64,000 bases of DNA, taken from the NCBI GenBank assembly GCA_022821965.1, contig JAJECN010000015.1, positions 54,785-118,784 of the forward strand, in the 5' to 3' direction. Shown in pieces: positions 2-57,607 of this stretch (position 1 is the first letter of the stretch; each line of letters opens with the position of its first letter). The notes beneath the pieces are model-generated. The model saw only the letters and a list, made by a program, of their open reading frames with translations. It had not been told where the DNA came from and made no database searches. Made by a program: the position numbers and the translations under genes. Source of the DNA: Candidatus Poribacteria bacterium (lineage in GTDB: Bacteria > Poribacteria > WGA-4E > WGA-3G).

Positions 2-454
2 CGTCATTTCCATGCGAGTGCATCAGCGATAGTTGATGGTGGGCTTGATGCGAAAGGTGTATGGATTGTCAATCCCGGAAATGGTCACGCCTACAAAAAA
101 ATCCGTTTTAGTGGCGTAGAAGATGCTATTGCGCAAGCAGCGAAAGAAAATGCTTATCTTGTCGCAATTAACGATGAATCGGAACAAAACTGGATAGAAT
201 GGGCTTTTGTCCCGCATCGCACCTTAATTGGGCTCAACGATACCGAAAAAGAAGGACAGTGGCAATGGCACAGTGGAGAACCCGTCACATATACCAATTG
301 GGCGAGGGATGAACCACACGATACTGACAAAGGTGATGAAGATTATGTCATCCTGTTTGCCAACCAATGGGTGGACATCGGTCCTGGAGACATAAGATGG
401 AGGTTTATTCAGTCCGTACTCCTTGAAAAGGAAGAAACGTCTCTAAAGAAGTAA
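2..454 (+). CDS. C-type lectin domain protein, 5'-truncated by window start (paralog of the array)
   Basis: Frame-2 ORF runs from the window start to TAA at 452-454. It has CTLD motifs (VWIVNPGNGHAY, LIGLND, W-W, EPH/DED) and an AILEK-like C-terminus. Confidence 0.75.
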   Translation, partial: RHFHASASAIVDGGLDAKGVWIVNPGNGHAYKKIRFSGVEDAIAQAAKENAYLVAINDESEQNWIEWAFVPHRTLIGLNDTEKEGQWQWHSGEPVTYTNWARDEPHDTDKGDEDYVILFANQWVDIGPGDIRWRFIQSVLLEKEETSLKK

Positions 455-472: not shown

Positions 473-1888
473 ATGAAATTTTCAAATTCTAAAAGGCACG
501 TTTTGTTATTGTTGATGGTGATAGTCGCACTTTTTATCGGTTTCATTTCACACACTGTCGCGCAGGAAGATACAGGTACCGTTACCGGACGTGTTATTGA
601 TCTGGATGGAAACCCAGTTGTCGGGTTGCAGATATTTATCGCGCCTCTTGACCTTGATCCGGATGGACACATGTGGACGGTGTTTTTACCGGATGAGCAC
701 GCACAGTTGCGCCGCGCTTACACAGATCGAGAAGGTCGGTTTTCCGTAACGGATGTTCCTTCAGGTCCGGTATATATCAGTGCCCTTCCAGACGACATAG
801 ATAAACGACTGCCCAAAGACTTTGAAAGAATTGTAGATGAGTTCACGTCCAGGGATTGGACGAAGATCACAGAAGACGACATAGATGCATTCTATTCCAG
901 TAACTTCGGCATGCACTTAGATGATTTTGAACCAGATGTTGAAATTTTATTCATTCGCGTCCGAAGATTCACCTTATACCCGCGCACTGATTACGATCAA
1001 ATCGCTTTTGGTGTCAAATCGGGCGCACATATTAAGGATGTGGAAGTCATCGTACAGCCGAGGATGCGAGTTCGCGGACGTGTCCTTTTCAAAGATGGAA
1101 CACCGCTTACTAATACGCGTGTTGACCTTCGCGCGCCTTCTCGTGATGTGGATGGCTCCGGTTCCGGCGGTGCCAGCGGAGACTTGTGGGTGGATACTGA
1201 AGGTTATTTCGTTCTTTATATAGATGAGAAGAATGATCCAGCGTTCTACACGTTTTCGGTGGAATATCAGGACCTTTCTACAGAGGTTGAACCAATTCGC
1301 CTTGATCCAGGCGATCGATTTGATGGGTTGACGTTGACGTTTGACAGCGAACCGATTCCTCCCAAACGACCCTCTCAAAAAACGGAAATAGACGAGCCTG
1401 AACTATCTTCGCCTCCGCCCGTACCAGAACCATCGTCGAGACCGATGTCTCGTGATGTATGGGTCGTCAATCCTGAAAATGGGCACGCCTATAAAAGAAT
1501 TCACTGCGAAACCCGCGACGATGCGATTGCCCAAGCTACAAAGGAAAAAGCGCATCTCGTCTCAATCAACAACGAAGCGGAACAGGCATGGTTGGAGGCG
1601 GTTTTTGGGCGCAAATTCTATTGGATCGGACTCCGTCGTGTTCCCGCGACTGGTCAACTTGCCAAACGCGCAAAAGAATGGTGGCAGTGGGACAACGGCG
1701 ACTCTATCACCTATGCGAACTGGTTACCCAACGAGTTCTTTTCTGAAGCTTTGGATGCCAGCAAAAGAGATTATGTCGTCATGACGCTTCCTGACGGGAA
1801 ATGGTATCCGGTGAGTCCTGACAGTGTTATCTGGGGTATGACGGAGATGGCAATCCTCGAAAAAGCAAACGTGCTTGATAATCCGTAG
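473..1888 (+). CDS. secreted protein with 2x CarboxypepD_reg-like beta-sandwich, Pro-rich linker and C-terminal C-type lectin domain
   Basis: Strong SD AAGGAGG precedes a signal peptide. GRVIDLDGNPVVG prealbumin-like motif; CTLD motifs WVVNPENGHAY...WIGL...WQWDNGD...YANW. Confidence 0.85.
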   Translation: MKFSNSKRHVLLLLMVIVALFIGFISHTVAQEDTGTVTGRVIDLDGNPVVGLQIFIAPLDLDPDGHMWTVFLPDEHAQLRRAYTDREGRFSVTDVPSGPVYISALPDDIDKRLPKDFERIVDEFTSRDWTKITEDDIDAFYSSNFGMHLDDFEPDVEILFIRVRRFTLYPRTDYDQIAFGVKSGAHIKDVEVIVQPRMRVRGRVLFKDGTPLTNTRVDLRAPSRDVDGSGSGGASGDLWVDTEGYFVLYIDEKNDPAFYTFSVEYQDLSTEVEPIRLDPGDRFDGLTLTFDSEPIPPKRPSQKTEIDEPELSSPPPVPEPSSRPMSRDVWVVNPENGHAYKRIHCETRDDAIAQATKEKAHLVSINNEAEQAWLEAVFGRKFYWIGLRRVPATGQLAKRAKEWWQWDNGDSITYANWLPNEFFSEALDASKRDYVVMTLPDGKWYPVSPDSVIWGMTEMAILEKANVLDNP

Positions 1889-1983
1889 TGTTCTTTTTAT
1901 CTCAACACCCCCCAATTCTTTGAAAAATTATGCACCAGTTTTGCACCGAATAAGCGTCACTATAGGGCAATCGGAGGTAATTC

Positions 1984-4026
1984 ATGAAAAACATCGATGT
2001 TGAACTCATTCACCGTGTGCTTGATGGCGATGATGCCGCTTTCGCTGAGCTTGTGAAAAAATACCAAAAACCGGTTCACACGCTGGTGTGGCGTAAAATT
2101 GGAGATTTCCACATCGCCGAGGAAATTACGCAGGATACATTCTTAAAGGCGTATCAAGAATTGGCAAAGTTGAAAAAACCGCAGAGTTTTGCGAGTTGGC
2201 TTTATGTGATCGCTGCGAACCACTGCAGTACATGGCTGCGTAAAAAGCGTTTACAGACGCAGTCGCTTGAGGAAACGAGTAGTGCTCGCTTAGAAAAGGC
2301 GACATATTCGGGATATGTTGTTGAAGAAAAGGAGCGGACAGCCTTGGAAGCACAACGCGAAGTCGTGAAAAAATTGCTTGCGAAACTCCAAGAGAGTGAG
2401 CGCACAGTGCTCACACTGCATTACTTCGGTGAGATGTCCAGTGCAGAGATTAGCGCGTTTTTGGGTGTGTCAGCGAATACGATAAGGAGTCGTCTCCGTC
2501 GTGCGCAGCAGCGTTTAAGGAAGGACGAACCGATGATTCGAAAAGCCTTGGAAAATTTTCAAATCACGCCGCATCTCACAGAAAATATCATGCGTGAGAT
2601 CGCGCGTATGAAACCCGCTGCACCGTCCGGCAGTAAACCGGTGGTGCCGTGGGCAATTACTGTTTCTACGGTAGCGGTGGTATTTTTGATGTTGGGCGTT
2701 GGAAGCCATCAATACTTGTCGCGTGTCCAAAAACCGTATAATTTCGACGCAAGGTCAGAGATGACAGTTGAACTCATTGAAGCCCCCGTTGTGCTAAATC
2801 TTGAGTCCAAACCGGATATTCGGACTCAACTTGGCGACAACGATGCAATCGGTAGAGACAATAAAACGCATCAGAACCCTGATGCGACGCTATTTTCTTC
2901 CGCCTCTGGGCACATTCTCGATGAAGCGGGAGAACCGGTTTCTGGGATCACAATAGCCATTACACCTGTCGTAGACGGCAATGGGGGTTGGTTCCCGATG
3001 CGGGAACGTGCGCTTGAGGATACGCCTGCACGCCACGTGGAAAGCGATGAGAAAGGACGTTTTACTATCACCGATGCTATCTCTGGTCCCGTGTTGTTGT
3101 CGCTATTTCCATCCGGTGGCGCGGCAGTCCGTATTTTAAAGGTTCAAATCGGCGGATTGGTTTTCTATCCAAGCGGAATGATGGATCGTGGAATTGTATT
3201 TACCCCACCCCCGGGTGAGTCTATTGAGAATATTGAAGTTACGGTGCAGAGTCCGCACATCCGAGGGAGAGTACAACGCATGGATGGGAGACCCCTCGCC
3301 AACACAAAAGTCAACATCCGTTTTCGGGCAATAAGTCAGCACGGTCAAGCTTCTTCGTCTTCAAGTAGGAATACAGATCCTGAGGGGTACTTCGCATACT
3401 ATGCGGAGAGAGATATAGAGCAACCAACATTTTACATGTTTTCTGTGACATATCAGGGACAGACCCTCAATGCAGACCCGATTGTGCTTAAACCTGGAGA
3501 TCCAACACACGACATTGTTTTCACGTTTGATGGTTTGCCAGAAGAGCATTTACAGGCGCGGCGTGGCGGTTTCGCGAGCGCGTCCGCCTCAACAAGTGTT
3601 CGTGCGCAAGATGTGTGGGTAATAAAGCCGAACTTTTCTCTACAAACTGGGGCGCACGCTTACAAGAAGATTAAGTGTGAGAGTTGGGAAGATGCACGAA
3701 CCCAAGCCGCCGCCGAAGGCGCACATCTCGTTACAATCAACGATGCCGCAGAGCAGAAATGGTTGCACATTGTCTTTGGAAGCCAACCGAGTTGGATTGG
3801 ATTGAATGATATTGCGCAAGAGGGAGAGTGGCGATGGGACAACGGCGAACCGCTTACCTATATCAATTGGGGATTTCAAGAACCCAATGATACAAACAAT
3901 GGAGATGAAGATTGTGTCATCATGGGTCCCTCAGGAGAATGGGTAGATGTTAACCCTGCGGACGGCGAATGGCGCTGGATCCGGACAGCAATCATTGAGA
4001 AGGAAACGTTGTCCGTAGAGAAGTAG
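1984..4026 (+). CDS. ECF sigma-70 factor (regions 2 and 4) fused to anti-sigma-like segment, one TM helix, CarboxypepD_reg domains and C-terminal CTLD with EPN/DEDC motifs
   Basis: N-terminal sigma-70 r2 (FLKAYQEL) and r4 (TVLTLHYFGEMSSAEISAFLGVSANTIRSRLRRAQQRLRK). TM helix VVPWAITVSTVAVVFLMLGVG. C-terminal WIGLND..EGEWRWDNGEPLTYINW..EPNDTNNGDEDC. Confidence 0.85.
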   Translation: MKNIDVELIHRVLDGDDAAFAELVKKYQKPVHTLVWRKIGDFHIAEEITQDTFLKAYQELAKLKKPQSFASWLYVIAANHCSTWLRKKRLQTQSLEETSSARLEKATYSGYVVEEKERTALEAQREVVKKLLAKLQESERTVLTLHYFGEMSSAEISAFLGVSANTIRSRLRRAQQRLRKDEPMIRKALENFQITPHLTENIMREIARMKPAAPSGSKPVVPWAITVSTVAVVFLMLGVGSHQYLSRVQKPYNFDARSEMTVELIEAPVVLNLESKPDIRTQLGDNDAIGRDNKTHQNPDATLFSSASGHILDEAGEPVSGITIAITPVVDGNGGWFPMRERALEDTPARHVESDEKGRFTITDAISGPVLLSLFPSGGAAVRILKVQIGGLVFYPSGMMDRGIVFTPPPGESIENIEVTVQSPHIRGRVQRMDGRPLANTKVNIRFRAISQHGQASSSSSRNTDPEGYFAYYAERDIEQPTFYMFSVTYQGQTLNADPIVLKPGDPTHDIVFTFDGLPEEHLQARRGGFASASASTSVRAQDVWVIKPNFSLQTGAHAYKKIKCESWEDARTQAAAEGAHLVTINDAAEQKWLHIVFGSQPSWIGLNDIAQEGEWRWDNGEPLTYINWGFQEPNDTNNGDEDCVIMGPSGEWVDVNPADGEWRWIRTAIIEKETLSVEK

Positions 4027-4082
4027 GTCTTATGCTTTATTCAAGAAGTAGGTCTTATGCTTTATTCAAAAGGAGAGAAATT

Positions 4083-5531
4083 GTGAAACGTTTGAAAGCC
4101 AGTAACAAGGTTTTTGCATCGTTCATAGTAATTGGCTCGCTTTTCATCGGGTTCGCTTCACACAGCATTGCTGACGTGGAGACGGGAACCTTCTCTGGAC
4201 GTGTTGTTGATGCGGAAGGAAATCCTGTTGCGAAATTGCCGGTTATGATTGGACCCGCTATGGTTATGGGACACGGAATTCAATCCGCATTTTTTCCAAG
4301 GCTGTATTCTGCTTCGCGACGTTCACTTACAGGTGCGGATGGACAGTTTTCCATTACCGATATTACGCCGGGAATTTCCTACTTCGGGGCACTTCCTTAC
4401 GATGTAGAGACGCTCTTGCCAGATGAACTTACGGCAAACACTGCAAAGGCTACGGCAGAAAAGGATATCGCTGCGTTCCACGCAAGTGGAGTCATGAAAA
4501 TGGAGGTGGAGGATTTTGAACCCGATGTTGAGATCTTATCTCTCCGCATCCAAGGGATAACGTTCTATCCGCGTACCGATCACGAGAAGATTGGGTTTAG
4601 TGTCAAACCGGGAACCCATATTGAAAATGTAGAGGTCACGGTGCAACCTCGGATGCGAATTCGGGGACGTATCATTTTTAAAGACGAAACACCTCTTGTC
4701 AATGCACGTGTTCACCTCCGCTTCCGCTCTCAGAGTGTGGGTGGTAATCGCAACCGGCAGTCAGGCGGAAAACCGCGAACAGATGCTGCGGGTTATTTCA
4801 TCCATTATCTGGAGGAGAAAGATGATCCGGCGTTCTACACGTTTTCCGTGGAATACCAAGATCTTTCCGCAGAGGCTGGACCGATCCGTCTTGATCCAGG
4901 GGAACGTCTTGACGGAGTAAAGTTTACATTTGATAGTGAACCGGTTCCGCCGCCACAACCACCGTCTCACACTATTCCACAACCACCGCTACATATTGCT
5001 CCACAAGCATTACCTCAGACAAAGACCCTTGATCGTCCATCTGCAGCTACGCCACCGTCGCCGAGAAGATCCATGCCGATGTCAGAAGAGGTGTGGATAG
5101 TCAATCCAGAGAATTTGCATGCCTACAAAAAGATTTATTGTGAAACTCGCAGCGATGCTGTTGCACAAGCAAGGGAAGAAAACGCGCATCTTGTCACTAT
5201 TAACGACGCGGCAGAGCAGACGTGGTTAGCAAAGGTTTTTGAGCATAAATTCTACTGGATCGGGCTCAGTCGCGTTCCACCGGTGGGCACGTCTTCTAAC
5301 GCAACGCAATGGCGATGGGAGAGTGGTGAACCTATCACCTATGCGAATTGGTTACCCGATTATATCTTTGGTGAATCCTTGGATGTTGGTAAGAGGAACT
5401 ATGCTATTATGACGTTCACCGATGGGAAATGGTATGCCGTTGGTCCTGACAGTCTTGTCTGGGGTATTACGGAAATGGCGATCCTCGAAAAAGCAGACGT
5501 GCTTGATAATCCGTCCGCCGCAGAAGAATGA
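4083..5531 (+). CDS. secreted CarboxypepD_reg + C-type lectin domain protein (array paralog)
   Basis: SD AAAGGAGAG then GTG start giving signal peptide VKRLKASNKVFASFIVIGSLFIGFA. Track ORF 4032 has an upstream in-frame extension. CTLD at the C-terminus. Confidence 0.8.
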   Translation: MKRLKASNKVFASFIVIGSLFIGFASHSIADVETGTFSGRVVDAEGNPVAKLPVMIGPAMVMGHGIQSAFFPRLYSASRRSLTGADGQFSITDITPGISYFGALPYDVETLLPDELTANTAKATAEKDIAAFHASGVMKMEVEDFEPDVEILSLRIQGITFYPRTDHEKIGFSVKPGTHIENVEVTVQPRMRIRGRIIFKDETPLVNARVHLRFRSQSVGGNRNRQSGGKPRTDAAGYFIHYLEEKDDPAFYTFSVEYQDLSAEAGPIRLDPGERLDGVKFTFDSEPVPPPQPPSHTIPQPPLHIAPQALPQTKTLDRPSAATPPSPRRSMPMSEEVWIVNPENLHAYKKIYCETRSDAVAQAREENAHLVTINDAAEQTWLAKVFEHKFYWIGLSRVPPVGTSSNATQWRWESGEPITYANWLPDYIFGESLDVGKRNYAIMTFTDGKWYAVGPDSLVWGITEMAILEKADVLDNPSAAEE

Positions 5532-5622: not shown

Positions 5623-6864
5623 ATGAATCTTCAAAATTTCAAACAAAATCTTAGATTTTTTGTTGGGATGATAATACTTTCTCTTCTGGTATCATTGTCT
5701 GTTGTTGCTCAACAAGGCGCGACAATTTCTGGACGCGTCGTTGATGAGCTGGGGGATCCGGTTGTCGGCACTTCGGTAGCACTCCATCGGTATAAAGCCA
5801 TAGATGATGATGAGCGACGAGTACGATTCGTGCCTTTCTGGCAAAAGCCGGTCGATTTAGATGGAAGTTTTTCATTCACGAACATCGCGCCAACGGAGTC
5901 CGTTAGTTTCATTGTAGAGGGTGAACGAACGAAAGGAAAAATCCTTTCTATTCAAATGGGTGAACTCACCCTTTATCCGGGGGACCATCCACATTTTGGT
6001 AAAGTAAGGTTTTCCTTGGAAGCAGGGATGGAAATCGAAGACGTTGTCGTCACGGTGAATACTACTATCCAACCACAAGTCCGCGTCCGAGTCGTTTCTG
6101 CCGATGGAACACCGCTTGCCAACGCGAATATACACGTTGCAGTACAACGTAAAGATTTAGATGGAACTGGCTCTGGGAGTTCTGGTAACACAACACAGAC
6201 CGATGCAGAAGGATATTTCGTAGAAGACCTTAGGGTGGATGACGATCCTAAATTCTATGTGCTTGGCGTTGAACACCAAGGACTTTTCGCGAAAGCACCG
6301 CCTTTCATTTTACATGAAGGACAACCACAAGTTCATCTCCTTTTGACCCTCAACGGTAATCCAGATCCACTTGCACGTCCACCAGTACGTCCGCCAATGG
6401 GTCCACCTGCGTCCGCTATTGCACTAACGGCGTTTCTTGATCCACCAACGGTATGGATTGTGAACCCCGCAAATGGACACGCTTACAAAAAGATCCATTG
6501 TAACAGTATAGCAGATGCTACGACCCAAGCCGCTGCAGAAAAGGCGTATCTCGTTGCCATCAATGATGAGGCAGAAAATGAATGGCTGGACGGAATCTTT
6601 GGGCGAGAGAGTTTTTGGATTGGACTCAACGATGCCGCCGAAGAAGGACAGCTGGTTTGGGATAGCGGTGAACCTGTTACCTATACGAATTGGGGTGAAC
6701 ATGAACGAGTAGGTGACAACACTGAGGTGAATGACTACGTTATCTGGGGATTTGGCGGTAGATGGGAAATGGTCGCGCTTGGAAGTCCGCATACGCATTT
6801 TGTCAAAACAGCTATTCTTGAAAGGACAGATGTCCCTGTTGAAACAGCATCTGAAGACAATTAG
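5623..6864 (+). CDS. secreted CarboxypepD_reg + C-type lectin domain protein (array paralog)
   Basis: SD precedes a signal peptide. CTLD motifs [43 protein letters not shown]. Confidence 0.85.
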   Translation: MNLQNFKQNLRFFVGMIILSLLVSLSVVAQQGATISGRVVDELGDPVVGTSVALHRYKAIDDDERRVRFVPFWQKPVDLDGSFSFTNIAPTESVSFIVEGERTKGKILSIQMGELTLYPGDHPHFGKVRFSLEAGMEIEDVVVTVNTTIQPQVRVRVVSADGTPLANANIHVAVQRKDLDGTGSGSSGNTTQTDAEGYFVEDLRVDDDPKFYVLGVEHQGLFAKAPPFILHEGQPQVHLLLTLNGNPDPLARPPVRPPMGPPASAIALTAFLDPPTVWIVNPANGHAYKKIHCNSIADATTQAAAEKAYLVAINDEAENEWLDGIFGRESFWIGLNDAAEEGQLVWDSGEPVTYTNWGEHERVGDNTEVNDYVIWGFGGRWEMVALGSPHTHFVKTAILERTDVPVETASEDN

Positions 6865-6930: not shown

Positions 6931-8265
6931 ATGAATCACCGAAGTTTCACACACATTGCATACCTTTTCAGTGTTGTAATAGTACTCTTTCTCGTTGCAT
7001 CCGTCCCTTGTATCGCACAGAACGGGACAGCACTCTCTGGTACCGTCCTTGACATGGAAGGGAAGCCGATTGCTGGATTTGCCATTGGGTTGTTACAAGG
7101 GGCTCTAATATCCATGACTGATGAAAAGGGTGCTTTCACTTTCACCAATATCCCCGCCGGACCGGTTCAAATTGCGATTCCAACGCAGCCGTCCAAAGAG
7201 AATGAAGAACCTATGTTCGATTTTGAGGCGGATGATGAAATCCTCTCAATCAAAATCAGGGGTATAACGCTTTATCAAGACACGCGTCCGCCTTTCGGCG
7301 GCATCGAGTTCGGTGTCAAATCGAGCAGCCATATCAAGGATGTAGCGGTTACCGTGCGTCCCCGAACGCGCATTCGGGCGAAAGTTATTTTCAAAGATGG
7401 AAAGCCGCTAACGAACGCCTCTGTTTCCCTGATAGTTGAGGGCAACGGTAGGGCGACCGGAGGAGCTACCACGGATGCCGAGGGATATTTTGTAAGTTAT
7501 TTCGATAAAAACGAGGTCCCAGCACACTACACGGTCTCCGTGAAATATAAAGGACTCTCGGCGAAATCAGAACTATTTCTGCTTGAAGAGGGGGCGCGCT
7601 ATGACGATTTAGTTTTAACGCTCGATGGTAATGTGCCGCCTGCTGCCCCACAAAAGGAATCTCTGCCGAAAGTTTTAGATAAATTGAGTGATGGATTGAC
7701 ACCACCTGAGAAACCGACACTCACCGAAACAGACCGCTCTGTACCAACTAACAAGGGGCAGGTTAATATTCAAGAGGTAGAAGTAAAACCTCGTGTAACA
7801 GGGGCTGAACCTACTAAACCCGTTAGGCAGATGCGACCGCCGTGGGAGAAAGATGCGTGGGCTGTGAACCCTGCAAATGGACACGGTTATAAAAAGATCC
7901 GGTGCGACAGTCTGGATGAGGCGCGAGATCGCGCTGCCGCTCAAGGCGCGTTCCTTCTTGCGATTAACGACGAAGCGGAGCAGAAATGGATTTCGGGATT
8001 CTTTGGGAATCATCTCTATTGGATTGGACTCAGCGATGCTGAAAACGAAGGGGAATGGGTATGGCAGAACGGTGATCCGCTCACCTATACGAATTGGGGA
8101 CCCAAGCACAGTTTCCCGCGGAGTCCGCTTTCACAGGAAAAGAAGGACAGTGCTGTGATGACGTTTGCGAATGGACAGTGGCATGCCGTTGGTCCCGGTG
8201 ACGTGCTCTGGCGTATGACGAAGATGGCAATCCTTGAAAAAGCAGACGTGCTTGATGGAAAATAA
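6931..8265 (+). CDS. secreted CarboxypepD_reg + C-type lectin domain protein (array paralog)
   Basis: SD AAGGAGA precedes a signal peptide. C-terminal CTLD; its 3' end is near-identical to that of the next gene. Confidence 0.85.
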   Translation: MNHRSFTHIAYLFSVVIVLFLVASVPCIAQNGTALSGTVLDMEGKPIAGFAIGLLQGALISMTDEKGAFTFTNIPAGPVQIAIPTQPSKENEEPMFDFEADDEILSIKIRGITLYQDTRPPFGGIEFGVKSSSHIKDVAVTVRPRTRIRAKVIFKDGKPLTNASVSLIVEGNGRATGGATTDAEGYFVSYFDKNEVPAHYTVSVKYKGLSAKSELFLLEEGARYDDLVLTLDGNVPPAAPQKESLPKVLDKLSDGLTPPEKPTLTETDRSVPTNKGQVNIQEVEVKPRVTGAEPTKPVRQMRPPWEKDAWAVNPANGHGYKKIRCDSLDEARDRAAAQGAFLLAINDEAEQKWISGFFGNHLYWIGLSDAENEGEWVWQNGDPLTYTNWGPKHSFPRSPLSQEKKDSAVMTFANGQWHAVGPGDVLWRMTKMAILEKADVLDGK

Positions 8266-8321: not shown

Positions 8322-9722
8322 ATGAATCTTCAACGTCTCGGTTTAAAACTTGGGATCCTCGTCGGCATTGTGGTATTCTCCTCTACTGTCGTCACTAAAG
8401 TGCAGGCAGGTAAACGCCCACAAATTCGCGCACGGGTCGTCTTTGCCGATGGAACACCGCTTGCTAACGCTGAAATATATGTTTTGGTGATACGCAGAAA
8501 CTTAGATGCAGGCGGCTCCGGAGGTTCAGGAAGTACAATGCAGACCGATGCCGAGGGATACTTTGTGGAAACCCTTAACGTAGGTAATAGATCCAAATTT
8601 TATGTGGTTGGTGTTGCGTATCAGAGGTATCTCGCGAAAGTCCCCCCTTTTATTTTGCAGGAGGGACAACCAGAAGTTCATCTACTCTTGACACTTGATG
8701 ACAATCGCGTTCCGATAGATAGATGGAACCCTGACCGAGAACACACAGCATTAGAAGCGTTTCTTGAGCCACCGACGGTATGGGTAGTGAATCCTATAAA
8801 TGGGCACGCTTATAAAAAGATTTATTGCCACGATGTAATGGATGCCCTGACCCAAGCCGCTACAGAAGGTGCGTATCTTGTTTCCATTAACGATGAAGCG
8901 GAGGAGATATGGATACAAGGAGTCTTTGAACCAGATAGTTTTTGGATCGGACTCAGCGATGTTGCTAAGGAGGGACAGTGGGTCTGGCACAGCGGTGAAC
9001 CGGTTACGTATACTAACTGGGGAGAGAATAAACAGGACGGTGGTAACACCGAGGTGAACGATTACGTCATCTCTGACTTTGGTGCCGAATGGCGGGCGGT
9101 TGCGCCGGGGGATGAACATACCCCTTTTACCCAAGAGGCAATCCTCGAAAGAGCAGATGTGCCTGTTAAGACACTATCTAATGAACAGACAAATGCCCAG
9201 CCAACGGGTGTCTCAATACCACCTGATAAAACTACCACCGCTCAAACCGGTCGTTTTGTCCCATCTCGGCAAATAAAGTCACTTTTGGAGATAGGTGTAT
9301 GGGCTGTAAACCCGGCAAATGGGCATGCTTACATAAGTATTCCGTGCAAAAGTCTGGACGATGCGCGAGATAGTGCCGCTGCCCAAGGTGCACACCTCGT
9401 CGCGATTAACGACGCAGCGGAACAGCAGTGGCTTTTAGGACTTTTTGGGAATCACCTTTATTGGATCGGACTCAGTGATGCCAAAAAAGAGGGTGAATGG
9501 ATATGGCAGAACGGTGAACCACTTACCTATAAGAATTGGGGATCCAAGTATAAATTCCCTCGTAGTTCTCTCTCACTGGAAGAGAAAGACAGTGCTGTTA
9601 TGACGTTTGCGAATGGACAGTGGCATGCTGTTGGTCCCGGTGACGTGCTCTGGCGTATGACGAAGAGGGCGATCCTTGAAAAAACAGACGTGTTTGACAG
9701 TTCCTCTGTGAAAGAAAAATAA
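8322..9722 (+). CDS. secreted mosaic paralog with two tandem C-type lectin domains
   Basis: Signal peptide, then a single prealbumin-like domain (5623-type). CTLD 1 resembles the 5623 gene's CTLD and CTLD 2 resembles the 6931 gene's CTLD. Confidence 0.85.
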
Positions 9723-9972
9723 TAGTTTGAATCTACAATTTTTCGTTTCGTGCTCACTTCTCCCCAGACAATTTTTTCCAATTAATTTGTCAGTCATTCC
9801 CACAAAGTCTACAGAGACATTCAGTTTTCCTGTGGCATTCAAAATATGTAGAACTGCCACAAGGTTCTCTTGCTAACGACCCATAACTGATAACTCCCGC
9901 GTGGAACGGGTTTCTTCGGGAAACACACAAGGAAAACACCCCGATCTCTCCCGCATAAGATGGAAATGGCTT

Positions 9973-10722
9973 ATGAGCCACCGAAACCTTTTACATAGAA
10001 TATTGGTAATCCCCCTTACAGTTACAATTTGTGCTTTCTTGGGTTGTGGTGAAACTATAGAAACTATAGAGATAGACAGAGCGAGTTTTTCAGGACGCGT
10101 TGTTGATGAAGTTGGAAATCCAGTTGCAGGGCTCGCGTTAGTCATTGTCCCGTGTAAAGTTGATGATGAGGCCGATATAGCGGTTTACGACGCGGAGACT
10201 AATGATACAGGTCATTTCTCTATTACGGGTATCTATCCCGGAAAAGCTCATTTCATGTTAGAGCCTGGGTATCAAAACGGTCTACCTCTTGAGCCGGAAT
10301 ATCAACTCCTTTCCTTTAAAATCGGGGTTTCTGCTTACTCTCCGAAAGACTTGTCTCCTGATCCTTGCACTCAGGATACCTTTTTTATTTCGCCGGGTGC
10401 GCGAATCGAAAACGTAGAGGTCGCGGTGCGCCTCCGGATGCGGATTCGCGCGAAAGTCGTTTTTGCAGATGGCACCCCCTTGGTAGATAAAGAGGTTAGT
10501 CTCAACATAAGAGCGTTCGATTTACAAGGAAGTAGTGTTGTTGGAGGTATCCAGGGGTCTGTGCAAACCGATGCTCAGGGATACTTTGTGCAGTATGTAG
10601 ATAGGAACGAGGCAATCGGCTATAGGGTGTCAGTTGAATATAAATGGCTTTGCTCAACATCGGAGATATTTATATTCGGAGTTGAGGAACGTCGCGAAGA
10701 TCTGATTTTGAAGTTAAGTTGA
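9973..10722 (+). CDS. lipoprotein paralog with CarboxypepD_reg-like domains, lacking the lectin domain
   Basis: Lipobox AFLG-C after MSHRNLLHRILVIPLTVTI. GRVVDEVGNPVAG motif. The protein ends before any CTLD. Start chosen at the in-frame ATG that gives a canonical lipoprotein signal; track ORF begins at GTG 9901. Confidence 0.7.
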   Translation: MSHRNLLHRILVIPLTVTICAFLGCGETIETIEIDRASFSGRVVDEVGNPVAGLALVIVPCKVDDEADIAVYDAETNDTGHFSITGIYPGKAHFMLEPGYQNGLPLEPEYQLLSFKIGVSAYSPKDLSPDPCTQDTFFISPGARIENVEVAVRLRMRIRAKVVFADGTPLVDKEVSLNIRAFDLQGSSVVGGIQGSVQTDAQGYFVQYVDRNEAIGYRVSVEYKWLCSTSEIFIFGVEERREDLILKLS

Positions 10723-10844: not shown

Positions 10845-11642
10845 ATGAGTTGTCAAAATTTTTTACATGAAATAGTGTTAATTTCCTTTGTAATTGCAAT
10901 CTGTACCTTATTGGGTTGTGGTGAAACTGAAGATACGTCCTCCTTGGCATTGTCGGAAACCGTGATAGATGGGGACACAGCAAGTTTTTCAGGGCGCGTT
11001 GTTGATGAAAATGGGAATCTGGTTGCTGGGCTTGCCTTGGTCATTCAGCCTCTTGAAGTCGACGATAATACTGGGGGGTGGATGTACGGTCCGACTTTGG
11101 AAGCGGAGACCGATGATGCAGGACATTTCTCTATCACAAATATTCGTCCTGGGCAATTTCAATTCATGTTGGCACGTGACTATCGGAACAGTCTGCTTTT
11201 TGAAACGGAATATCAACTCCTTTCTGTCAAAATCGGGACTTTTGCCTATCATCCGGGCGACCGGTTCCCTCCTGCTTTTACTAAAGATACTCTTTCTATC
11301 ACTCCAGGCGCGGAAATAGAAAACGTAGAGGTCACGGTACGACTCCGAATGCGGGTTCGCGCGAAAATTGTTTTTGCAGATGGCACGCCCTTGGCAAACA
11401 AGGAAGTTAAAATCAGCATAAAAACGCGAGATTTACATGGAGATGGGAGTGGGAGTATTGGGTCTATATTGCAAACCGATGTCCAAGGGTACTTCATACA
11501 GTACGTGGATAGAGGTCGGGCGACCTCCTACACCGTATCGGTAGAATATAAAGAACTTTCTGCAACGTCAGAGAAATTTGTACTCAATGTCGGGGAACGT
11601 CGCGAAGATTTAATTTTGAAATTATCGGGTCCTCCCCAGTAA
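10845..11642 (+). CDS. lipoprotein paralog with CarboxypepD_reg-like domains, lacking the lectin domain
   Basis: SD AAAGGGGAGGG then ATG. Lipobox TLLG-C. About 60% identical to the 9973 gene. Confidence 0.75.
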   Translation: MSCQNFLHEIVLISFVIAICTLLGCGETEDTSSLALSETVIDGDTASFSGRVVDENGNLVAGLALVIQPLEVDDNTGGWMYGPTLEAETDDAGHFSITNIRPGQFQFMLARDYRNSLLFETEYQLLSVKIGTFAYHPGDRFPPAFTKDTLSITPGAEIENVEVTVRLRMRVRAKIVFADGTPLANKEVKISIKTRDLHGDGSGSIGSILQTDVQGYFIQYVDRGRATSYTVSVEYKELSATSEKFVLNVGERREDLILKLSGPPQ

Positions 11643-11687: not shown

Positions 11688-12767
11688 TCACGAAAGTAGA
11701 TTTCCACAGTAGGCACAAGCGTCTAACTTGACATCTCCATTAAACGTTTCACGCTCCGGCGTTAAGTAGGTCTCATAGTTCGTAACGCAATTTGGGTTTT
11801 CACACGTCCGAGTAGAGGTGCCAATGTCTCGTTTCGGGGGTTGGGTCAAGATGAGTTGTTCCAATCCCATGAGACTGGCGATGAGTGCCATCCGAACCGG
11901 TACTGCGTTGGCGGATTGCTCGAAATAGGCGGCACGTGGGTCGTCGTCTAACTCATAAGCGAGTTCATTGACGCGCGGGAGTGGATGCATAATCATCGCG
12001 TCCGGCTTTGCGTTTTTCATGACTTCTGCATTCAGTAGATAACTGCCGCGCACGGCGGCTGGATCCATGTTCGATGGCAGTCGTTCCTCCTGAAGCCGAT
12101 TCACATAGATGACATCCAACCTCTCAATCACTTCTGTGATATTTTCTACTTCAAGCGGTATCTGTCCATGACACTGTTCGAGTTGCGCGAGCAGCCACGG
12201 TGGCATCTGTAGCGGTTGTGGCGCGATGTGAACCAGTTGCCCACCGAATCTCGCAACTGCCAAAGCAAAGGAGTGTGCCGCTCGTCCAAACTGCAGATCG
12301 CCGCAGATACCGACGGTTAACCCTTCTACTTTCGATTTTCGGCGTATAATCGTATATAGGTCCGCGAGTGCTTGTGTCGGATGTGTATGGCTGCCATCAC
12401 CGCCGTTGATGACGGGGATATGCGCGTATTTTGCCATAACACGTGCTGCGCCTGCCCAGTTATGCCGCACCACAATGATGTCGGCATAATTCGTCACCAT
12501 CCGCGCAGTGTCGGCGAGCGTTTCGCCTTTGGCGGTAGAAGTCGCGCTTGGGTCAGCGAAACCGAGAGTGCCACCATTGAGGCGTTCCATCGCACTTTCA
12601 AACGAAAGCCGGGTACGTGTACTCGGTTCATAGAAGAGCGTTGCGAGCAATTTGCTCCTGCTGATGCCCGCCCATGTCTCTAATTGCGACTGCATGCCTC
12701 CTGCAAGTCGAAAAATCTGTTCAATCTCAAAATTCGACAAATCGTCGAGTGTTATCAGATGCCGCAT
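11688..12767 (-). CDS. pyrB: aspartate carbamoyltransferase catalytic chain fused to a PyrI-type C-terminal zinc-ribbon domain
   Basis: STRTR and HPTQALAD ATCase motifs with SD AAGGAGG. Extra C-terminal ~45 aa C-ENPNC...C-AYC resembles the PyrI zinc domain (CPNSNC...CKYC). Confidence 0.85.
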   Translation of the reverse strand: MRHLITLDDLSNFEIEQIFRLAGGMQSQLETWAGISRSKLLATLFYEPSTRTRLSFESAMERLNGGTLGFADPSATSTAKGETLADTARMVTNYADIIVVRHNWAGAARVMAKYAHIPVINGGDGSHTHPTQALADLYTIIRRKSKVEGLTVGICGDLQFGRAAHSFALAVARFGGQLVHIAPQPLQMPPWLLAQLEQCHGQIPLEVENITEVIERLDVIYVNRLQEERLPSNMDPAAVRGSYLLNAEVMKNAKPDAMIMHPLPRVNELAYELDDDPRAAYFEQSANAVPVRMALIASLMGLEQLILTQPPKRDIGTSTRTCENPNCVTNYETYLTPERETFNGDVKLDACAYCGNLLS

Positions 12768-14854: not shown

Positions 14855-16798
14855 TTACCAACTTAGGTAGACGACGCGAAAATCGAAAATCAATCCCAAA
14901 ATACTAATTATGGATGCGACGATCACATCACCAATAACCAAGCCGATGAAGAACGGGATTGAACGCCGGTATAAGCGGACACCTCCAGTCGAGAGCAATA
15001 TCCGTTTAATGATCCAACTGATTAAGAGCGGAAACCAAAGTCCGGTAAAGGTCCACCAACTTGAAACGACGTATCCAACGGGATGCAGGGGCCACTGAAT
15101 GAATCGCCATCGTAGGAGCAGGAGGCTAACAGCGAAGGTAAATCCGCCAGCGGTATAGAGCATACCGCTAATACTCGTTTCGCTGGGATTATAAAGCCAT
15201 CCCGCGAGTCTGTTGAAAGCGGCGCGAGCATACCACGAGCGCGCCTGCTCTAAACCGACTTGGTAGGAGAGATGCAAGTGTCCCCACGCTGCAGAGAGCG
15301 CACCTACGAAGATAGCAATCGCTAATACCCATAGCAATTGCGTCGGATTGAAGCGGGTTTGATGTGCGAGTTTCAATCCCTCCAGTTGATGCGGCATCGG
15401 GTGTGCACGATACGAGAGATGGTTCAACCAGAAAAAGAGCGACATCACCGAGAGGTTCCGGTTGCCGATACGCCGTGTGCCGAGAGCATCTGTCAAAAGT
15501 AGGTCTGGACCGGCGTTGTAGAGGTCGTGCGCGGGCGGTCCCAGTTCGGCACGGATACGGGTGATTGTCACCGACATCGCGAAATAGAGCGCGAAGAATA
15601 AGGCTGCAAACCAGAGCGACATTCCCGCCTTCAGACAAAACGCCAGAATCAAGATAAATCCGATGAGCGCGCCGATGCCTGCTGTTCTATAACGTAACGC
15701 TTCACCTTCGTCGTTAGTGGGAGGCGCGCGGTTGTTGAAAATCGTCTGCAGCACCACCTTAACATGTGAACGTCCCATCCACAGGGTCCAGAGAAATAGG
15801 GCTATCCAGACCCCTCGAATTTGCGCCATTTCTCGCGGAAATCCGACAGCACCTCGCCAGCCGAACATCTCACCAATGATCCGCTCAAAGTGCCAAAACA
15901 GGTGAAAAAACCAGCAGGAGAACCCCAAATCGAGTGGGATCAGAAAACCCACCCCAATCGCAAACGGAAAGAAACTGATACGGAAACCGGGGTTATTCAT
16001 CGCACTCCACGGCTTTTCACCGAGTCGAAATCCGTGGTAAAGCGGAATTGTAGGGAAAACAGGATCGATTTGGTGTAAACTATAAAGAAGATTCAGGACA
16101 GCAGCGATGCATAAGCCGACGGTCATCATCCGTCTATTGAAAAACAGATGGGACGCAGTTCGTAGGGGGTTTCCTGCATTTGTCGCCGCTCGTGTGATTT
16201 CGTAAGGGAGTTGTGCGATCGGGTAGGTGAGCCGTTCATGTTCTTGCCACTGCTTACGTATAAGCACATTGATGCAGAGCATCGTCACCCCGATGACGAG
16301 GCAGAAACAGACCCAGATTAACGTTGGCAATAGCCACGCTTGTATGTTGGTCTGGAGGTAGAACGTGGATTCGCCTTTGTAGAAACCTTGTAATACCTCC
16401 TGTTTTCCAACGACAAGCCATTCAGGAAGGTGTTGATGAAAGAGTTGTGCCCATTCATTTTCGGTAGTTGCGTACCAAAAACCGTTGCCCATCAATGGCA
16501 CCAAGACTTGTAGCATATCGCGTCCGGCGAAAACGGAGGCTTGGCACAGCATCGCATAGATCGTTAGCAATTCGCTCTGTGTAAACGCCAACGTTGGGTG
16601 CAAGCGGCGTAGTATCACACTGAGTCCGATAAGGACGAGCAGCGTGAACAGGACATTGAACAGCAATGCTAAACTCGTGGGGCGGTTGGAGTCCCATATA
16701 TAACTGAGGTGTAGAACCCAGTAGCTATTAAATGGGATGAGCAGAATTCCAATCAGCGTTGCACGTAGCGTAATAGGGCTTTTTGAAGGGTGTTTCAT
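14855..16798 (-). CDS. large polytopic integral membrane protein of unknown function (647 aa, >12 predicted TM helices)
   Basis: Long ORF made of hydrophobic segments throughout. No catalytic motif recognised. Confidence 0.6.
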   Translation of the reverse strand: MKHPSKSPITLRATLIGILLIPFNSYWVLHLSYIWDSNRPTSLALLFNVLFTLLVLIGLSVILRRLHPTLAFTQSELLTIYAMLCQASVFAGRDMLQVLVPLMGNGFWYATTENEWAQLFHQHLPEWLVVGKQEVLQGFYKGESTFYLQTNIQAWLLPTLIWVCFCLVIGVTMLCINVLIRKQWQEHERLTYPIAQLPYEITRAATNAGNPLRTASHLFFNRRMMTVGLCIAAVLNLLYSLHQIDPVFPTIPLYHGFRLGEKPWSAMNNPGFRISFFPFAIGVGFLIPLDLGFSCWFFHLFWHFERIIGEMFGWRGAVGFPREMAQIRGVWIALFLWTLWMGRSHVKVVLQTIFNNRAPPTNDEGEALRYRTAGIGALIGFILILAFCLKAGMSLWFAALFFALYFAMSVTITRIRAELGPPAHDLYNAGPDLLLTDALGTRRIGNRNLSVMSLFFWLNHLSYRAHPMPHQLEGLKLAHQTRFNPTQLLWVLAIAIFVGALSAAWGHLHLSYQVGLEQARSWYARAAFNRLAGWLYNPSETSISGMLYTAGGFTFAVSLLLLRWRFIQWPLHPVGYVVSSWWTFTGLWFPLLISWIIKRILLSTGGVRLYRRSIPFFIGLVIGDVIVASIISILGLIFDFRVVYLSW

Positions 16799-17090: not shown

Positions 17091-17783
17091 TCAAAGGTCT
17101 TCCTCCGCAGATGTTTCTTCTTGGGCAACTGGTGTTTTGCCTGCCAGATAAAGAAACCATATCGTAAGCGCGATTGCGATGAGAATCCACAAAGCACCCC
17201 AAATTTCAGTCGCTATGCCTGTTACCTCCGATAGCATCCGGGCATCTGAACGGAGACTGGATCTGTCTAAAACATCGCTCTTGATGTCAAGGATCGCGTA
17301 GAGACAACTCGTCACGCCGATAATACGTAACACCCAATCGTTGACAACCTCTGGAAGATAAAAGCCGATGGCGATCAGCGCAACGCCAAAACCGATACCG
17401 AACAGATAGGTAAATGTACTCTCGCCCAAGCCTATGGAGATGGCTACCATACCGACACCGATCAGGATACTAATCGCTTTATCAAAACGTGTTCTCGCTG
17501 CCAGAAGCAGAATGATCCCACCCCACAATAGACTGCCAAGATAGCCCGCTGTTAATGTCCAAAACCGAGAGCCACCTTGTGTGAGCGCGTGTCCCCCTTG
17601 CTGTGGGTTAATCTGAATTTCAAGGATGCGACCTCCCGTTGCGATCGCCGCAAGCCCATGGCTCACCTCATGCATGAACACAACGAAGATTTTGAGTGGA
17701 TATACAAACAGCGTGTTCCATAAAAACCCGATGGCTATGAAGATCAGGAGCAGCGCGATATAACGTTTAAAAATTGATAGCAT
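17091..17783 (-). CDS. membrane-embedded zinc metalloprotease-like protein (HExxH in a TM segment; M50/site-2-protease-like)
   Basis: FVVFMHEVSHGLAAIATGG motif within a hydrophobic helix; about 6 TM helices. Confidence 0.45.
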   Translation of the reverse strand: MLSIFKRYIALLLIFIAIGFLWNTLFVYPLKIFVVFMHEVSHGLAAIATGGRILEIQINPQQGGHALTQGGSRFWTLTAGYLGSLLWGGIILLLAARTRFDKAISILIGVGMVAISIGLGESTFTYLFGIGFGVALIAIGFYLPEVVNDWVLRIIGVTSCLYAILDIKSDVLDRSSLRSDARMLSEVTGIATEIWGALWILIAIALTIWFLYLAGKTPVAQEETSAEEDL

Positions 17784-26586: not shown

Positions 26587-28860
26587 TCACGGACGAAACA
26601 GGGCTTCGTCAATTTCAGTGTTCAGCGTAATGTCGGTGATAAAGACTCGTCGAAATTCCCCGTTCTTTGTCGTACGATAATGTGGGATTTTAATGCCATC
26701 TACGTCCCGATAATCGTCGAGGAATGCTACCACGTTTCCCACTTCTCCGCCTATCTCAACGTCATAACTAAACTGGATTACGTAGTGGGTTTCTTTACTA
26801 ATGAAGATTTTTAACTTTTTCCCGGAAGGCTGCGTAACGAGGAGAACGGATGTAGGTTCACCCTTTACATTTTCTGTTCCTATGTATTGAACCGGAACAT
26901 CGTTTTTCGAGAGGGTTGCCAAAAGCCACATAGGCTCTCGAAAAAGGCTATCCTTAAAGAAGTTAATATAAGACTCGGTCTCCTCGAGTGGAACAGGTTT
27001 GACCTCTCCGGCTGCTATCATAAACACCGATTCTCCATCAAAGATTAGATGGTTATCCTTCTGGGCGTGAATACCCCAATCGCTGCGAACCCTGTTGGCA
27101 TCAAAATATGTTTTTGCCGGTCCCTCATCCTGCATGGTTCCATCCGGAAGGTGTTCAAAACTCTCAGATTCCATCACAATACTTTTCACTGTTTCGAGGT
27201 TCTCAAGTCCACCGTGCGCAGCGATAGCCGCATTGATAATTTCTTTGGCATCGGGTTCTACATTTTGCGCACCATCAGGCGAATCGGAGGGTGTCCTTAT
27301 AGGAGCATCGACGGGTTTCGCGAGGTTTTCCTTCATCAATTCAGCAACGGCAGATTCAACATCAAAACCGCCGAGGCTCGCCTTTCGGATAATCCCTTCA
27401 CTGTCAATTAAAAAAGCTGATGGAATTCCCCAAACCCCGTATAGCGTCCTTAACTTCCGACTTTCGTCCCAGTAGTGAATCCACCCAAGTCCTTCTTTTT
27501 CAACATAAGCCTCAAGTGGTTGCTTTGACCTATCCAAGCTGATGCCGATGATTTGGAAATTCTGATCCTTGTATGCTTCATAAGTCCGCTTCAGTTTCGG
27601 CATCTCTGCTATGCAGGGTCCACACCATGTTGCCCAGAAGTCAAGCAGCACAACCTGCCCACGATAGTCTTTCAAAGAAAGTTCTTCCCCTTTCAAATTC
27701 GTTACCTGAAAATCTGGGGCAGGTTTACCGACCCACTCACTCGGATTTGTTCTGGAAGACTTAATTGATTCATCTTTTTGAGAAGTTGTTTCCTGTTTCA
27801 GGATCTTTGTCGCGGGTATTGACTCTTTCTCAGATGTTTTGGCAGGCTTCGCGAGATTTTCCGTCACCAATTCCTCGACGGCATGTTCAAGCGCGTGTCC
27901 ACGGAGGTTCGTCTTGCGGATGGTCCCTTCACCGTCAATCAGGAAGGTAGATGGAATCGCCCGCACCTTATACATATTACTAACCTTGCCACTGTTATCC
28001 CAATAGTGCACCCATCCGAGTTCCTTTTTTTCTATATATTCCTCAAGGGGCGTTATGGATCTGTCGAGGCTAATCCCAATAATCTGAAACTTTTGATCTT
28101 TATACTTTTTATAAGTCCGCTTAACGTTCGGCATCTCTGCTATGCAGGGTCCGCACCACGTTGCCCAGAAGTCCAGCAGCACAACCTGCCCGCGGTATTT
28201 TTCCAACGAAAGTTCTTCGCCGTTCAGATCCGTCACCTGAAAGTCAAGTGCAGGTTTACCGGTCCACTCACTGGAGGTCATTCCCGGTCCTTGGCTTGTC
28301 CCAGGCGGTTTCGATAATTCACCCTTTCGGTCGGTTCTATCCTGTTCAAGGAGCTGCTTCGCAAGTTTTGCTTGCGATCGTTTACCATACTTCGGGTGAT
28401 CTATCAATTTCTGGTAAGCACCGTCTGCTGCATCGTGATTGCCAAGTTTATCATACGCCAATCCTAAGTCTAACAGGCAGCGTTCAACGTAGCGAGCCTC
28501 TGGATAGTCTGCAACGACTTTTTCAAAGATGTGGATACCTTCTTCAACATGCTCCAACTGAACTAATGCGTTGCCGAGCAGGTAATAGACCTCATCTACC
28601 CGTTTGTATCCTGGATGCGCTGCAACAAATTCTTCGGATTTCTCAACCAACCTCTCTAAATCTTCCTGTGTCTTCTGCTTTTTGAGACTTTTGGAAATTG
28701 CCTTAATTTCCTGATACTTGTAAGCTGCTTTCATCGAAGCCTCACCAGAGAAGTTCACACAAAAACCTATTAGGACAAGACTTGTGAGCACGTAAATGAG
28801 ATGAGCACAAAAACCTCTATTTCTGCTTTGCTGTGAATTTATTTCATTTTGGAAGAACAT
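26587..28860 (-). CDS. secreted TPR-repeat protein with two tandem TlpA/ResA-like thioredoxin domains and a C-terminal beta-rich domain
   Basis: SD GAGGAG then MFFQNE and a signal peptide. WATWCGPCIAEMP occurs twice. Confidence 0.8.
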   Translation of the reverse strand: MFFQNEINSQQSRNRGFCAHLIYVLTSLVLIGFCVNFSGEASMKAAYKYQEIKAISKSLKKQKTQEDLERLVEKSEEFVAAHPGYKRVDEVYYLLGNALVQLEHVEEGIHIFEKVVADYPEARYVERCLLDLGLAYDKLGNHDAADGAYQKLIDHPKYGKRSQAKLAKQLLEQDRTDRKGELSKPPGTSQGPGMTSSEWTGKPALDFQVTDLNGEELSLEKYRGQVVLLDFWATWCGPCIAEMPNVKRTYKKYKDQKFQIIGISLDRSITPLEEYIEKKELGWVHYWDNSGKVSNMYKVRAIPSTFLIDGEGTIRKTNLRGHALEHAVEELVTENLAKPAKTSEKESIPATKILKQETTSQKDESIKSSRTNPSEWVGKPAPDFQVTNLKGEELSLKDYRGQVVLLDFWATWCGPCIAEMPKLKRTYEAYKDQNFQIIGISLDRSKQPLEAYVEKEGLGWIHYWDESRKLRTLYGVWGIPSAFLIDSEGIIRKASLGGFDVESAVAELMKENLAKPVDAPIRTPSDSPDGAQNVEPDAKEIINAAIAAHGGLENLETVKSIVMESESFEHLPDGTMQDEGPAKTYFDANRVRSDWGIHAQKDNHLIFDGESVFMIAAGEVKPVPLEETESYINFFKDSLFREPMWLLATLSKNDVPVQYIGTENVKGEPTSVLLVTQPSGKKLKIFISKETHYVIQFSYDVEIGGEVGNVVAFLDDYRDVDGIKIPHYRTTKNGEFRRVFITDITLNTEIDEALFRP

Positions 28861-57538: not shown

Positions 57539-57607
57539 GATGTGTGGATTGGTAATATTTTTTACTTTTATCCTTAATCGAAGATTGAATACTTTAGGAA
57601 ACAAATT

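Follow-up and report, generated by a model that had tools for sequence, protein, structure and literature searches.

The gene at positions 1984-4026 (+) of the 64,000 nucleotide (nt) stretch of Candidatus Poribacteria DNA analyzed here (contig JAJECN010000015.1; the whole stretch is called the window) encodes a 680 amino acid (aa) protein, hereafter the sensor, in which an extracytoplasmic function (ECF) sigma factor is joined by a single transmembrane (TM) helix to an extracytoplasmic C-type lectin-like domain (CTLD). This architecture, first suggested by a sequence-only reading of the window, was upheld by hidden Markov models (HMMs), hydropathy, a fold search and its recurrence in many genomes. 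By analogy with known systems, the sensor is probably an autoregulated membrane-tethered sigma factor that is released by regulated proteolysis and drives transcription of its own gene and of the lectin genes downstream. Its first 285 residues form a module that was duplicated hundreds of times in the phylum and joined to differing extracytoplasmic domains. The gene and its upstream region contain the following features.

1925-1970 (+): putative ECF-type promoter; sole hit of a 46-nt promoter matrix within the 64-kb window, score 56.
1974-1979 (+): ribosome-binding site GGAGGT, read from the letters 4 nt 5' of the ATG at 1984; GGAG is invariant among aligned orthologs.
1984-4026 (+): membrane-tethered ECF sigma factor with CTLD ectodomain; complete gene, 680 aa, a single uninterrupted open reading frame (ORF).
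2050-2250 (+): Sigma-70 region 2 (sigma2), aa 23-89; PF04542, 48.9 bits (cut-off 24).
2362-2523 (+): Sigma-70 region 4 (sigma4), aa 127-180; PF08281, 50.4 bits (cut-off 25.7), aa 127-177; PF04545, 45.1 bits.
2530-2637 (+): cytoplasmic tail behind sigma4, aa 183-218; consensus EEPMIREAL..FQITPNLTENIMREI..KP.APSG.KP; conservation 0.82; predicted local distance difference test (pLDDT) score <50.
2638-2706 (+): single TM helix, ~aa 219-241; Kyte-Doolittle mean 2.13 over 19 residues, positive-inside charge.
2707-2838 (+): extracytoplasmic juxtamembrane stalk, aa 242-285; consensus QYL.RFQKPYSFDA.SEMTVELIEAP.VLNLE.KPD.RTQ.G; conservation 0.76.
2899-3531 (+): two transthyretin-like (TTR)/CarboxypepD_reg β-sandwiches, aa ~306-410 and ~414-516, from Pfam and AlphaFold.
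3613-4008 (+): CTLD, aa ~544-675; Lectin_C PF00059 over aa 566-657.

The N-terminal domain was examined with Pfam and NCBIfam models, and its assignment to the sigma-70 family stood, as it passed the cut-offs of both PF04542 and PF08281. Sigma70_ECF (PF07638) spanned aa 7-180 with 28.4 bits (cut-off 21.1). The generic NCBIfam model TIGR02937 for ECF sigma-70 factors scored 96 bits (cut-off 42.9) and was the only one to pass; all of the specific NCBIfam sigma models fell below their own cut-offs. Neither Sigma70_r1 nor Sigma70_r3 from Pfam matched anywhere in the 680 aa, and the Pfam domain borders leave a short linker of ~35 aa between sigma2 and sigma4. With sigma2 and sigma4, no sigma1.1 or sigma3, and a short linker, the protein is an ECF (group 4) sigma-70 factor.

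Net charge is +2 on the N-terminal side of the TM helix and -4 on its C-terminal side, which places the sigma domain on the cytoplasmic side of the membrane and the lectin domain on the outer side. The first β-sandwich matched CarboxypepD_reg PF13620 at aa 308-382 (E 2e-09). The second was weaker (aa 426-491), and DUF4198 and DUF6795 matched it poorly. An AlphaFold model built with 65 orthologs had a mean pLDDT of 59 over the whole protein; aa ~306-516 were all-β with pLDDT 70-89, and the C-terminal domain was confident. That domain matched Lectin_C with 59.5 bits (cut-off 22.6, E 6e-16). A phmmer search of the PDB matched it to DEC-205, PLA2R, the mannose receptor, CL-P1, CD23 and DC-SIGN, while Foldseek retrieved the carbohydrate-recognition domains of CD23 and SRCL (scavenger-receptor C-type lectin) with target TM-scores of 0.75-0.81. 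Because both sequence and fold matched metazoan CTLDs, the C-terminal domain was classified as a metazoan-type CTLD.

No point was found in support of a frameshift or assembly artefact joining separate sigma and lectin genes, a concern that the sequence-only reading had itself raised, and such an artefact is exceedingly improbable. The ORF is continuous in the window, and the full architecture recurred in over 60 protein clusters drawn from other assemblies (43-93% identity, 100% coverage), several of which belong to named Candidatus Poribacteria and several to complete chromosomes. Alignments of these full-length orthologs ran unbroken across the sigma/lectin junction, and aa 183-218 at the junction were as conserved at the protein level as sigma2 and sigma4 among 123 distinct paralogs. 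The artefact was rejected on the strength of the continuous homologs and the conserved junction.

The sigma-TM portion proved to be far more widespread than the lectin. When aa 1-290 were scanned against species-representative genomes, at least 556 confirmed relatives were obtained, and the best 80 of these were all in Poribacteria genomes. The module of residues 1-285 is common to the relatives at ~70-80% identity. Proteins of 900-1280 aa matched the first ~300 residues only (75-82% identity) and have C-terminal WD40, BNR/sortilin, transglutaminase or unknown domains. In a library clustered at 50% identity, 289 clusters matched at E <= 1e-30, nearly all of the top 150 covered aa 1-288, and the few named clusters were from Poribacteria. 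The 783 kb of loci retrieved for comparison (designated by L numbers) contained 132 sigma-TM genes with the same plan throughout. Two or three tandem copies were present in 35 loci, and one 6.67-Mb chromosome carried at least 9 copies. In loci L008-L087 the paralogs often form head-to-tail groups of two or three, spaced 33 to ~2600 nt apart, and many are followed by a sigma-less homolog of their own ectodomain (WD40-, BNR- or CTLD-type).

A TM helix at the same place and none later was predicted in 128/128 paralogs tested. The ectodomains of 107 complete paralogs were WD40-type (48/107), BNR/sortilin-type (31/107) or CTLD-type (14/107); the rest comprised two unnamed classes of 6 each and two singletons. 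Column conservation among the 123 distinct paralogs was 0.83 in sigma2 and 0.82 in both sigma4 and the tail; the TM helix scored 0.71 and the stalk 0.76. Past aa 286 it fell to 0.37, and the stalk was kept whichever ectodomain followed. Since conservation ends sharply at ~aa 285, the transferable unit is taken to be aa 1-285. Searches of the available Poribacteria literature concerning sigma factors, C-type lectins or WD40 proteins yielded no description of this family, nor any paper that connects Poribacteria with ECF sigma factors and C-type lectins; the papers searched note abundant WD40 proteins and do not mention sigma fusions.

The promoter assigned to the sensor gene has an extended -35 element, ATTATGCACC, at 1927-1936 (core TGCACC 1931-1936) and a -10 element, GCGTCAC, at 1954-1960 (CGTC 1955-1958), with a spacer of 18-19 nt. 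An AAC/ACC-type -35 with a CGTC -10 is the layout typical of ECF promoters. In the ortholog alignment TTATGCA-C and G-GTC were invariant and at fixed spacing down to 43% protein identity. Across the family, the motif ATTATGCA(C/A)C-N19-GTC, 53 or 77 nt 5' of the ATG, occurred in 73/128 upstream regions as opposed to 0.5 expected from shuffles. The 46-nt matrix was built from 69 distinct family sites and has the consensus gAATTATGCAcCnGTTTnaCcccTAAgtnGCGTCACtAtag. It matched the 783 kb at 98 places, 89 of them directly upstream of sigma-TM family genes. On this sequence evidence TGCA(C/A)C-N18-CGTC probably acts as a promoter.

The sequence-only reading had proposed an autoregulatory ECF promoter made up of a TGCACC-N5-TGCACC direct repeat and a CGTC element. 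Its first TGCACC, as the -35, and the CGTC within GCGTCAC, as the -10, are conserved family-wide; the repeat is not. The second TGCACC (1942-1947) falls within the spacer and is TACACC, GACCC or similar in orthologs and paralogs, and a direct-repeat operator was rejected for these reasons. The region upstream of the array gene D (described below) shares an CCGAATAA(A/G)CGT stretch with the sensor promoter but, by eye, not the -35 element.

Among the 9 matrix matches that do not precede sigma-TM genes, one is ahead of the first secreted lectin of the L005 array and two are ahead of WD40-repeat proteins that adjoin sigma-TM paralogs; the one in L069 has an N-terminal hydrophobic leader. Such non-sigma matches lie at L069 7786, L075 2796, L005 4298, L031 1799, L087 625 and L016 357. 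The proteins encoded behind them are WD40-repeat, lectin-like or unannotated, and most begin with a hydrophobic leader; their genes are possible regulon members.

The sensor gene is embedded in an array of genes for related lectin-like proteins.

2-454 (+): 3' part of an array gene upstream of the sensor, truncated at the start of the window, frame 2; CTLD with EPHD..GDEDYV..WVD.
473-1888 (+): paralog A, a secreted TTR-TTR-CTLD protein of 471 aa, from ORF, Pfam and ectodomain comparison.
4083-5531 (+): the +1 partner directly 3' of the sensor, a secreted TTR-TTR-CTLD protein without the Ca2+-site signature; start GTG at 4083 by ortholog alignment, not ATG at 4032.
5623-6864 (+), 6931-8265 (+) and 8322-9722 (+): secreted paralogs D, E and F (F with two CTLDs), from ORF, Pfam and ectodomain comparison.
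9973-10722 (+) and 10845-11642 (+): lipoprotein-like paralogs G and H, with β-sandwiches only, no CTLD and an LGC lipobox.

The sensor ectodomain is 31-46% identical to the neighboring secreted paralogs, so the homology that had been claimed between them is borne out. The closest relatives of the ectodomain are orthologs of the truncated ORF 2-454, secreted proteins without a sigma domain (L001 13644-14900, 418 aa; L005 7243-8478, 411 aa). The mature part of the 418-aa protein aligned with the sensor ectodomain end to end, from just past the signal peptide to the C-terminus, with 44% identity. The best matches of ORF 2-454 itself were sigma-fused proteins, but in a restricted BLAST database; it was rejected as a second sigma-fused sensor because its true orthologs are the secreted proteins of 411-418 aa. 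No further sigma-TM paralogs were present among the large ORFs scanned in the window. It seems that the sensor ectodomain derives from the adjacent secreted lectin-like family and that its signal peptide was replaced by the sigma module.

Orthologs of the +1 gene lie directly 3' of the sensor, with gaps of 9-44 nt, in four annotated loci (L001, L002, L003 and L005). Each of the 16/16 CTLD-type sensors sampled, as well as several WD40- and BNR-type sensors, was followed by a homolog of its own ectodomain. The most distant ortholog (43% identity) retains the sensor and one downstream paralog and nothing more of the array, and syntenic loci differ in how many secreted lectin paralogs accompany the sensor. 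The sensor/+1 pair is the conserved core of the locus. Syntenic Candidatus Poribacteria loci are bordered on one side by an MR_MLE gene and two AP_endonuc_2 genes and on the other by an aspartate/ornithine carbamoyltransferase gene (11688-12767 in the window).

A perfect 25-bp tandem duplication (GAAGTAGGTCTTATGCTTTATTCAA, twice) at 4020-4069 runs across the sensor stop codon into the intergenic region. It is specific to the window (neither L001 nor L008, both close orthologous loci, has it) and creates the spurious ATG at 4032. Intrinsic terminators within the array showed no excess over shuffles. A near-consensus sigma-70 promoter, TTGACA-18-AATAAT (11/12 matches), lies at 9694-9723 (+), at the end of gene F and upstream of G and H, which may be transcribed independently of the sensor.

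The proposed mechanism begins with the sigma domain held inactive at the membrane. A ligand, plausibly a host or particle glycan, would bind the CTLD ectodomain, possibly together with the +1 secreted paralog, and binding would expose the conserved stalk to a site-1 protease. The stalk (aa 242-285) is the candidate segment for site-1 cleavage or partner docking. An intramembrane site-2 protease would next cut the TM helix and free the sigma domain, and the freed sigma factor with core RNA polymerase would fire TGCA(C/A)C-N18-CGTC ahead of its own gene, giving positive feedback. Read-through would transcribe the downstream lectin genes, which is plausible given short gaps and no terminator excess. 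Release by regulated intramembrane proteolysis is known from the RseA/sigmaE system. Positive autoregulation is typical of ECF sigma factors (PMC7826278).

Several observations weigh against this scheme. Co-transcription of the downstream lectin genes is suggested by short gaps and the lack of terminators only. The window contains no further match to the matrix, and the sensor promoter does not serve the array genes 5' of it. Promoter conservation among paralogs could partly reflect common descent of duplicated upstream DNA. No site-1 or site-2 protease was found to be specifically linked to the sensor gene. A Peptidase_M50B-like membrane metalloprotease of 230 aa is encoded at 17091-17783 (-), ~5 kb past the array, and is a possible site-2 protease. 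Its gene is syntenic in close relatives (L005-L007), and none was seen within 10 kb of the sensor in distant orthologous loci.

The same list includes the means by which the sigma factor would be kept inactive. The sequence-only reading had described an anti-sigma-like stretch behind the sigma domain. This description was not supported, as aa 181-308 matched no Pfam family even at E <= 10. The cytoplasmic space between sigma4 and the membrane is only ~36 aa, and no HxxxCxxC motif occurs between sigma4 and the TM helix. The negative comes from one HMM library, which leaves room for a novel minimal inhibitory helix. The stretch, the aa 183-218 tail, is real and highly conserved, yet it cannot be named an anti-sigma domain. 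The AlphaFold model was poor over aa 1-304 and uninformative on docking of the tail to the sigma domains.

Having found neither an anti-sigma domain nor a linked protease, we considered a ToxR- or CadC-like mode in which the sigma factor is active without leaving the membrane, ligand altering oligomerization or conformation so as to unmask the sigma domain without proteolysis. The tail, conserved like the sigma domains, could serve as a conformational switch of this kind. A sigma factor, however, must join core RNA polymerase and travel to promoters, and the strong conservation of stalk and TM helix agrees better with recognition by a protease. Moreover, the comparable fusion IutY is released by proteolysis, and release has also been proposed for SCO4117 (PMC8999054, PMC5826349). 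Activity in the tethered state was therefore judged quite unlikely.

The last observations against the scheme concern the ligand. In canonical CTLDs such as MBP-A and DC-SIGN, the five Ca2+ site-2 ligands come from EPN (its E and N, or Q and D where the motif is QPD), from the E that precedes the β3 Cys, and from WND (its N and D). The sensor has 4/5 of these ligands: E633, N635, E642 and D655 are kept, and the Asn of WND is V654. Position 635 varies among orthologs (N/D/H/G/Q), as does position 654 (V/I/E/K). Both canonical disulfides, C1-C4 and C2-C3, are absent. The only cysteines of the domain are C565 and C644; the C1 position is Ala in the DEC-205 alignment, and C644 (DEDC) is Tyr in most orthologs. 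The CTLD thus lacks the complete set of five ligands and the two disulfides of MBP/DC-SIGN-type lectins. The full Ca2+/sugar signature that had been attributed to the sensor was too generous in view of the Val in WVD, the variable Asn of EPN and the Cys that is mostly Tyr. Nor is the sensor the only array member with such a signature (EPx...EDxV...WxD), as had been stated, since the truncated ORF 2-454 reads EPHD..GDEDYV..WVD.

With 4/5 ligands, two variable ligand positions and no canonical disulfides, sugar binding is uncertain, and the ectodomain might not sense glycans at all. It might bind a protein or other non-sugar ligand, or it might do no more than cap the stalk, with release triggered by envelope damage or by a shared protease, the CTLD being a scaffold. 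Many CTLDs elsewhere are non-lectin, and the WD40 and BNR propellers of the sister sensors are typical protein-binding or general binding modules. On the other hand, E633, P634, E642, W653 and D655 are invariant or nearly so over 65 orthologs, so a site is apparently being kept; these residues are shared by the closest secreted paralog; and glycoside hydrolases of families GH95, GH32 and GH172 are plentiful in the window and in syntenic loci. We regard a non-glycan role as unlikely and glycan sensing by the sensor CTLD as plausible.

Because the paralogs keep near-identical sigma2 and sigma4 and the same promoter, a network with many inputs and one promoter type is probable. The near-uniformity of recognition regions and promoter across all paralogs also makes it likely that sensors activate one another's promoters. 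A more extended picture is put forward tentatively, as possible rather than probable: a Poribacteria sensory network with several tethered sigma factors per genome, built on one module and promoter type with differing and often eukaryote-like ectodomains, often with a secreted twin, in which the CTLD member senses sponge-host or particle glycans and switches on secreted lectins, and sensors cross-activate. If true, this would be a bacterial circuit in which an animal-type lectin domain serves to sense host glycans. Poribacteria are dominant, uncultured sponge symbionts. A sigma factor wired to an animal-type lectin domain would be a concrete candidate for sensing host or particle glycans, and so would its sisters with other eukaryote-like domains. 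With its sharp border at ~aa 285, shared promoter and adjacent secreted ectodomain copies, the family is a natural case of modular one-component ECF signaling. It could aid understanding of the uncharacterized ECF57-type sigma factors of Planctomycetes and the design of synthetic membrane-to-transcription sensors.

Known systems resemble the sensor in part. Pro-sigmaK of Bacillus subtilis is a membrane-associated sigma factor activated by the S2P-family protease SpoIVFB, and is held by a short N-terminal pro-sequence; it differs in having no C-terminal TM helix and ectodomain. In the sigmaV system of B. subtilis, the ectodomain of the anti-sigma factor RsiV binds lysozyme directly, which licenses site-1 cleavage, but RsiV is a protein separate from the sigma factor.

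Single-polypeptide designs have been published as well, and the view that such a design was uncharacterized had to be given up in light of ECF52 SCO4117, IutY and ECF57 (PMC5826349, PMC8999054, PMC7826278). SCO4117 of Streptomyces coelicolor comprises a sigma factor, a zinc-finger anti-sigma domain, a TM segment and a carbohydrate-binding module (CBM), and its proteolytic release has been proposed (PMC5826349). Like the sensor, ECF52 combines an ECF sigma factor, a TM segment and an extracytoplasmic carbohydrate-binding domain in one polypeptide and has a putative autoregulatory promoter (PMC5826349). It has features of its own in the zinc-finger anti-sigma domain (pfam13490), a proline-rich spacer and a CBM-type domain (smart00776) (PMC5826349), while the Poribacteria protein has no detectable anti-sigma domain and a metazoan-type CTLD behind two TTR-like domains. 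ECF52 occurs in Actinobacteria only, with one copy in S. coelicolor (PMC5826349), in contrast to the hundreds of paralogs in the Poribacteria family.

IutY of Pseudomonas putida, an ECF243 sigma/anti-sigma hybrid, likewise has a sigma factor fused via a TM segment to a periplasmic sensing domain (PMC8999054). Its release by Prc (site-1) and RseP (site-2) has been shown experimentally, and truncated IutY is constitutively active (PMC8999054). IutY has a complete FecR-type anti-sigma domain and receives its input from a TonB-dependent outer-membrane receptor (PMC8999054); nothing of the kind was found here. Of the traits that define sigma/anti-sigma hybrids (ECF52, ECF48/53 and IutY types), the sensor has the TM segment and the extracytoplasmic C-terminal domain and lacks the anti-sigma domain (ZAS/FecR).

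ECF57 (formerly ECF01-Gob) of Planctomycetes averages 5.3 copies per genome, with extensions in which WD40 is prevalent (PMC8999054, PMC7826278). It shares with the Poribacteria family its multiple copies and the joining of conserved sigma2 and sigma4 to dissimilar long C-terminal extensions (PMC8999054, PMC7826278, PMC7671368). The sensor carries a CTLD instead of WD40, and its closest paralogs (75-82% identical over aa 1-290) carry WD40. For ECF57, a connection of sigma2 to sigma4 through two conserved cysteines has been proposed (PMC8999054), whereas in aa 1-190 here the invariant C81 is the single conserved cysteine. The present family also belongs to another phylum, its shared module adds the tail, TM helix and stalk, and a CTLD extension and shared promoter were unreported for ECF57. 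Pinto and co-workers showed that duplicated planctomycetal sigma factors gain unrelated C-terminal extensions via insertion into coding regions (PMC7671368). This model fits the sensor because its ectodomain is a copy of a neighboring secreted protein. In sum the basic design is known; new here are the phylum, the CTLD ectodomain, the lack of a recognizable anti-sigma domain, the conserved tail/TM/stalk module, the scale of expansion, the shared promoter and the frequent pairing with a secreted ectodomain.

Other genes of the window were recorded in passing. Glycan-degrading enzymes are encoded by a GH95 (fucosidase-type) gene at 42546-44864 (-) and GH32 genes at 51449-53008 (+) and 53712-55334 (+). 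GH172 genes flank the syntenic loci, so that the neighborhood is rich in glycan-degrading enzymes. A DUF6785/DUF6784 protein of 647 aa, encoded at 14855-16798 (-), is syntenic with the lectin locus in several Poribacteria genomes. A 762-aa protein with TPR repeats and two AhpC/TSA-thioredoxin-like domains is encoded at 26587-28875 (-). The region 56312-61927 (+) encodes a 408-aa protein with a VHL β domain (eukaryote-like) and then a protein of 1439 aa that starts with a sacsin-like domain and ends with a nuclease domain of the NucS type. G+C is 0.42-0.44 over 56-64 kb and ~0.48 elsewhere in the window, and because of this drop 56-64 kb may be an acquired island.

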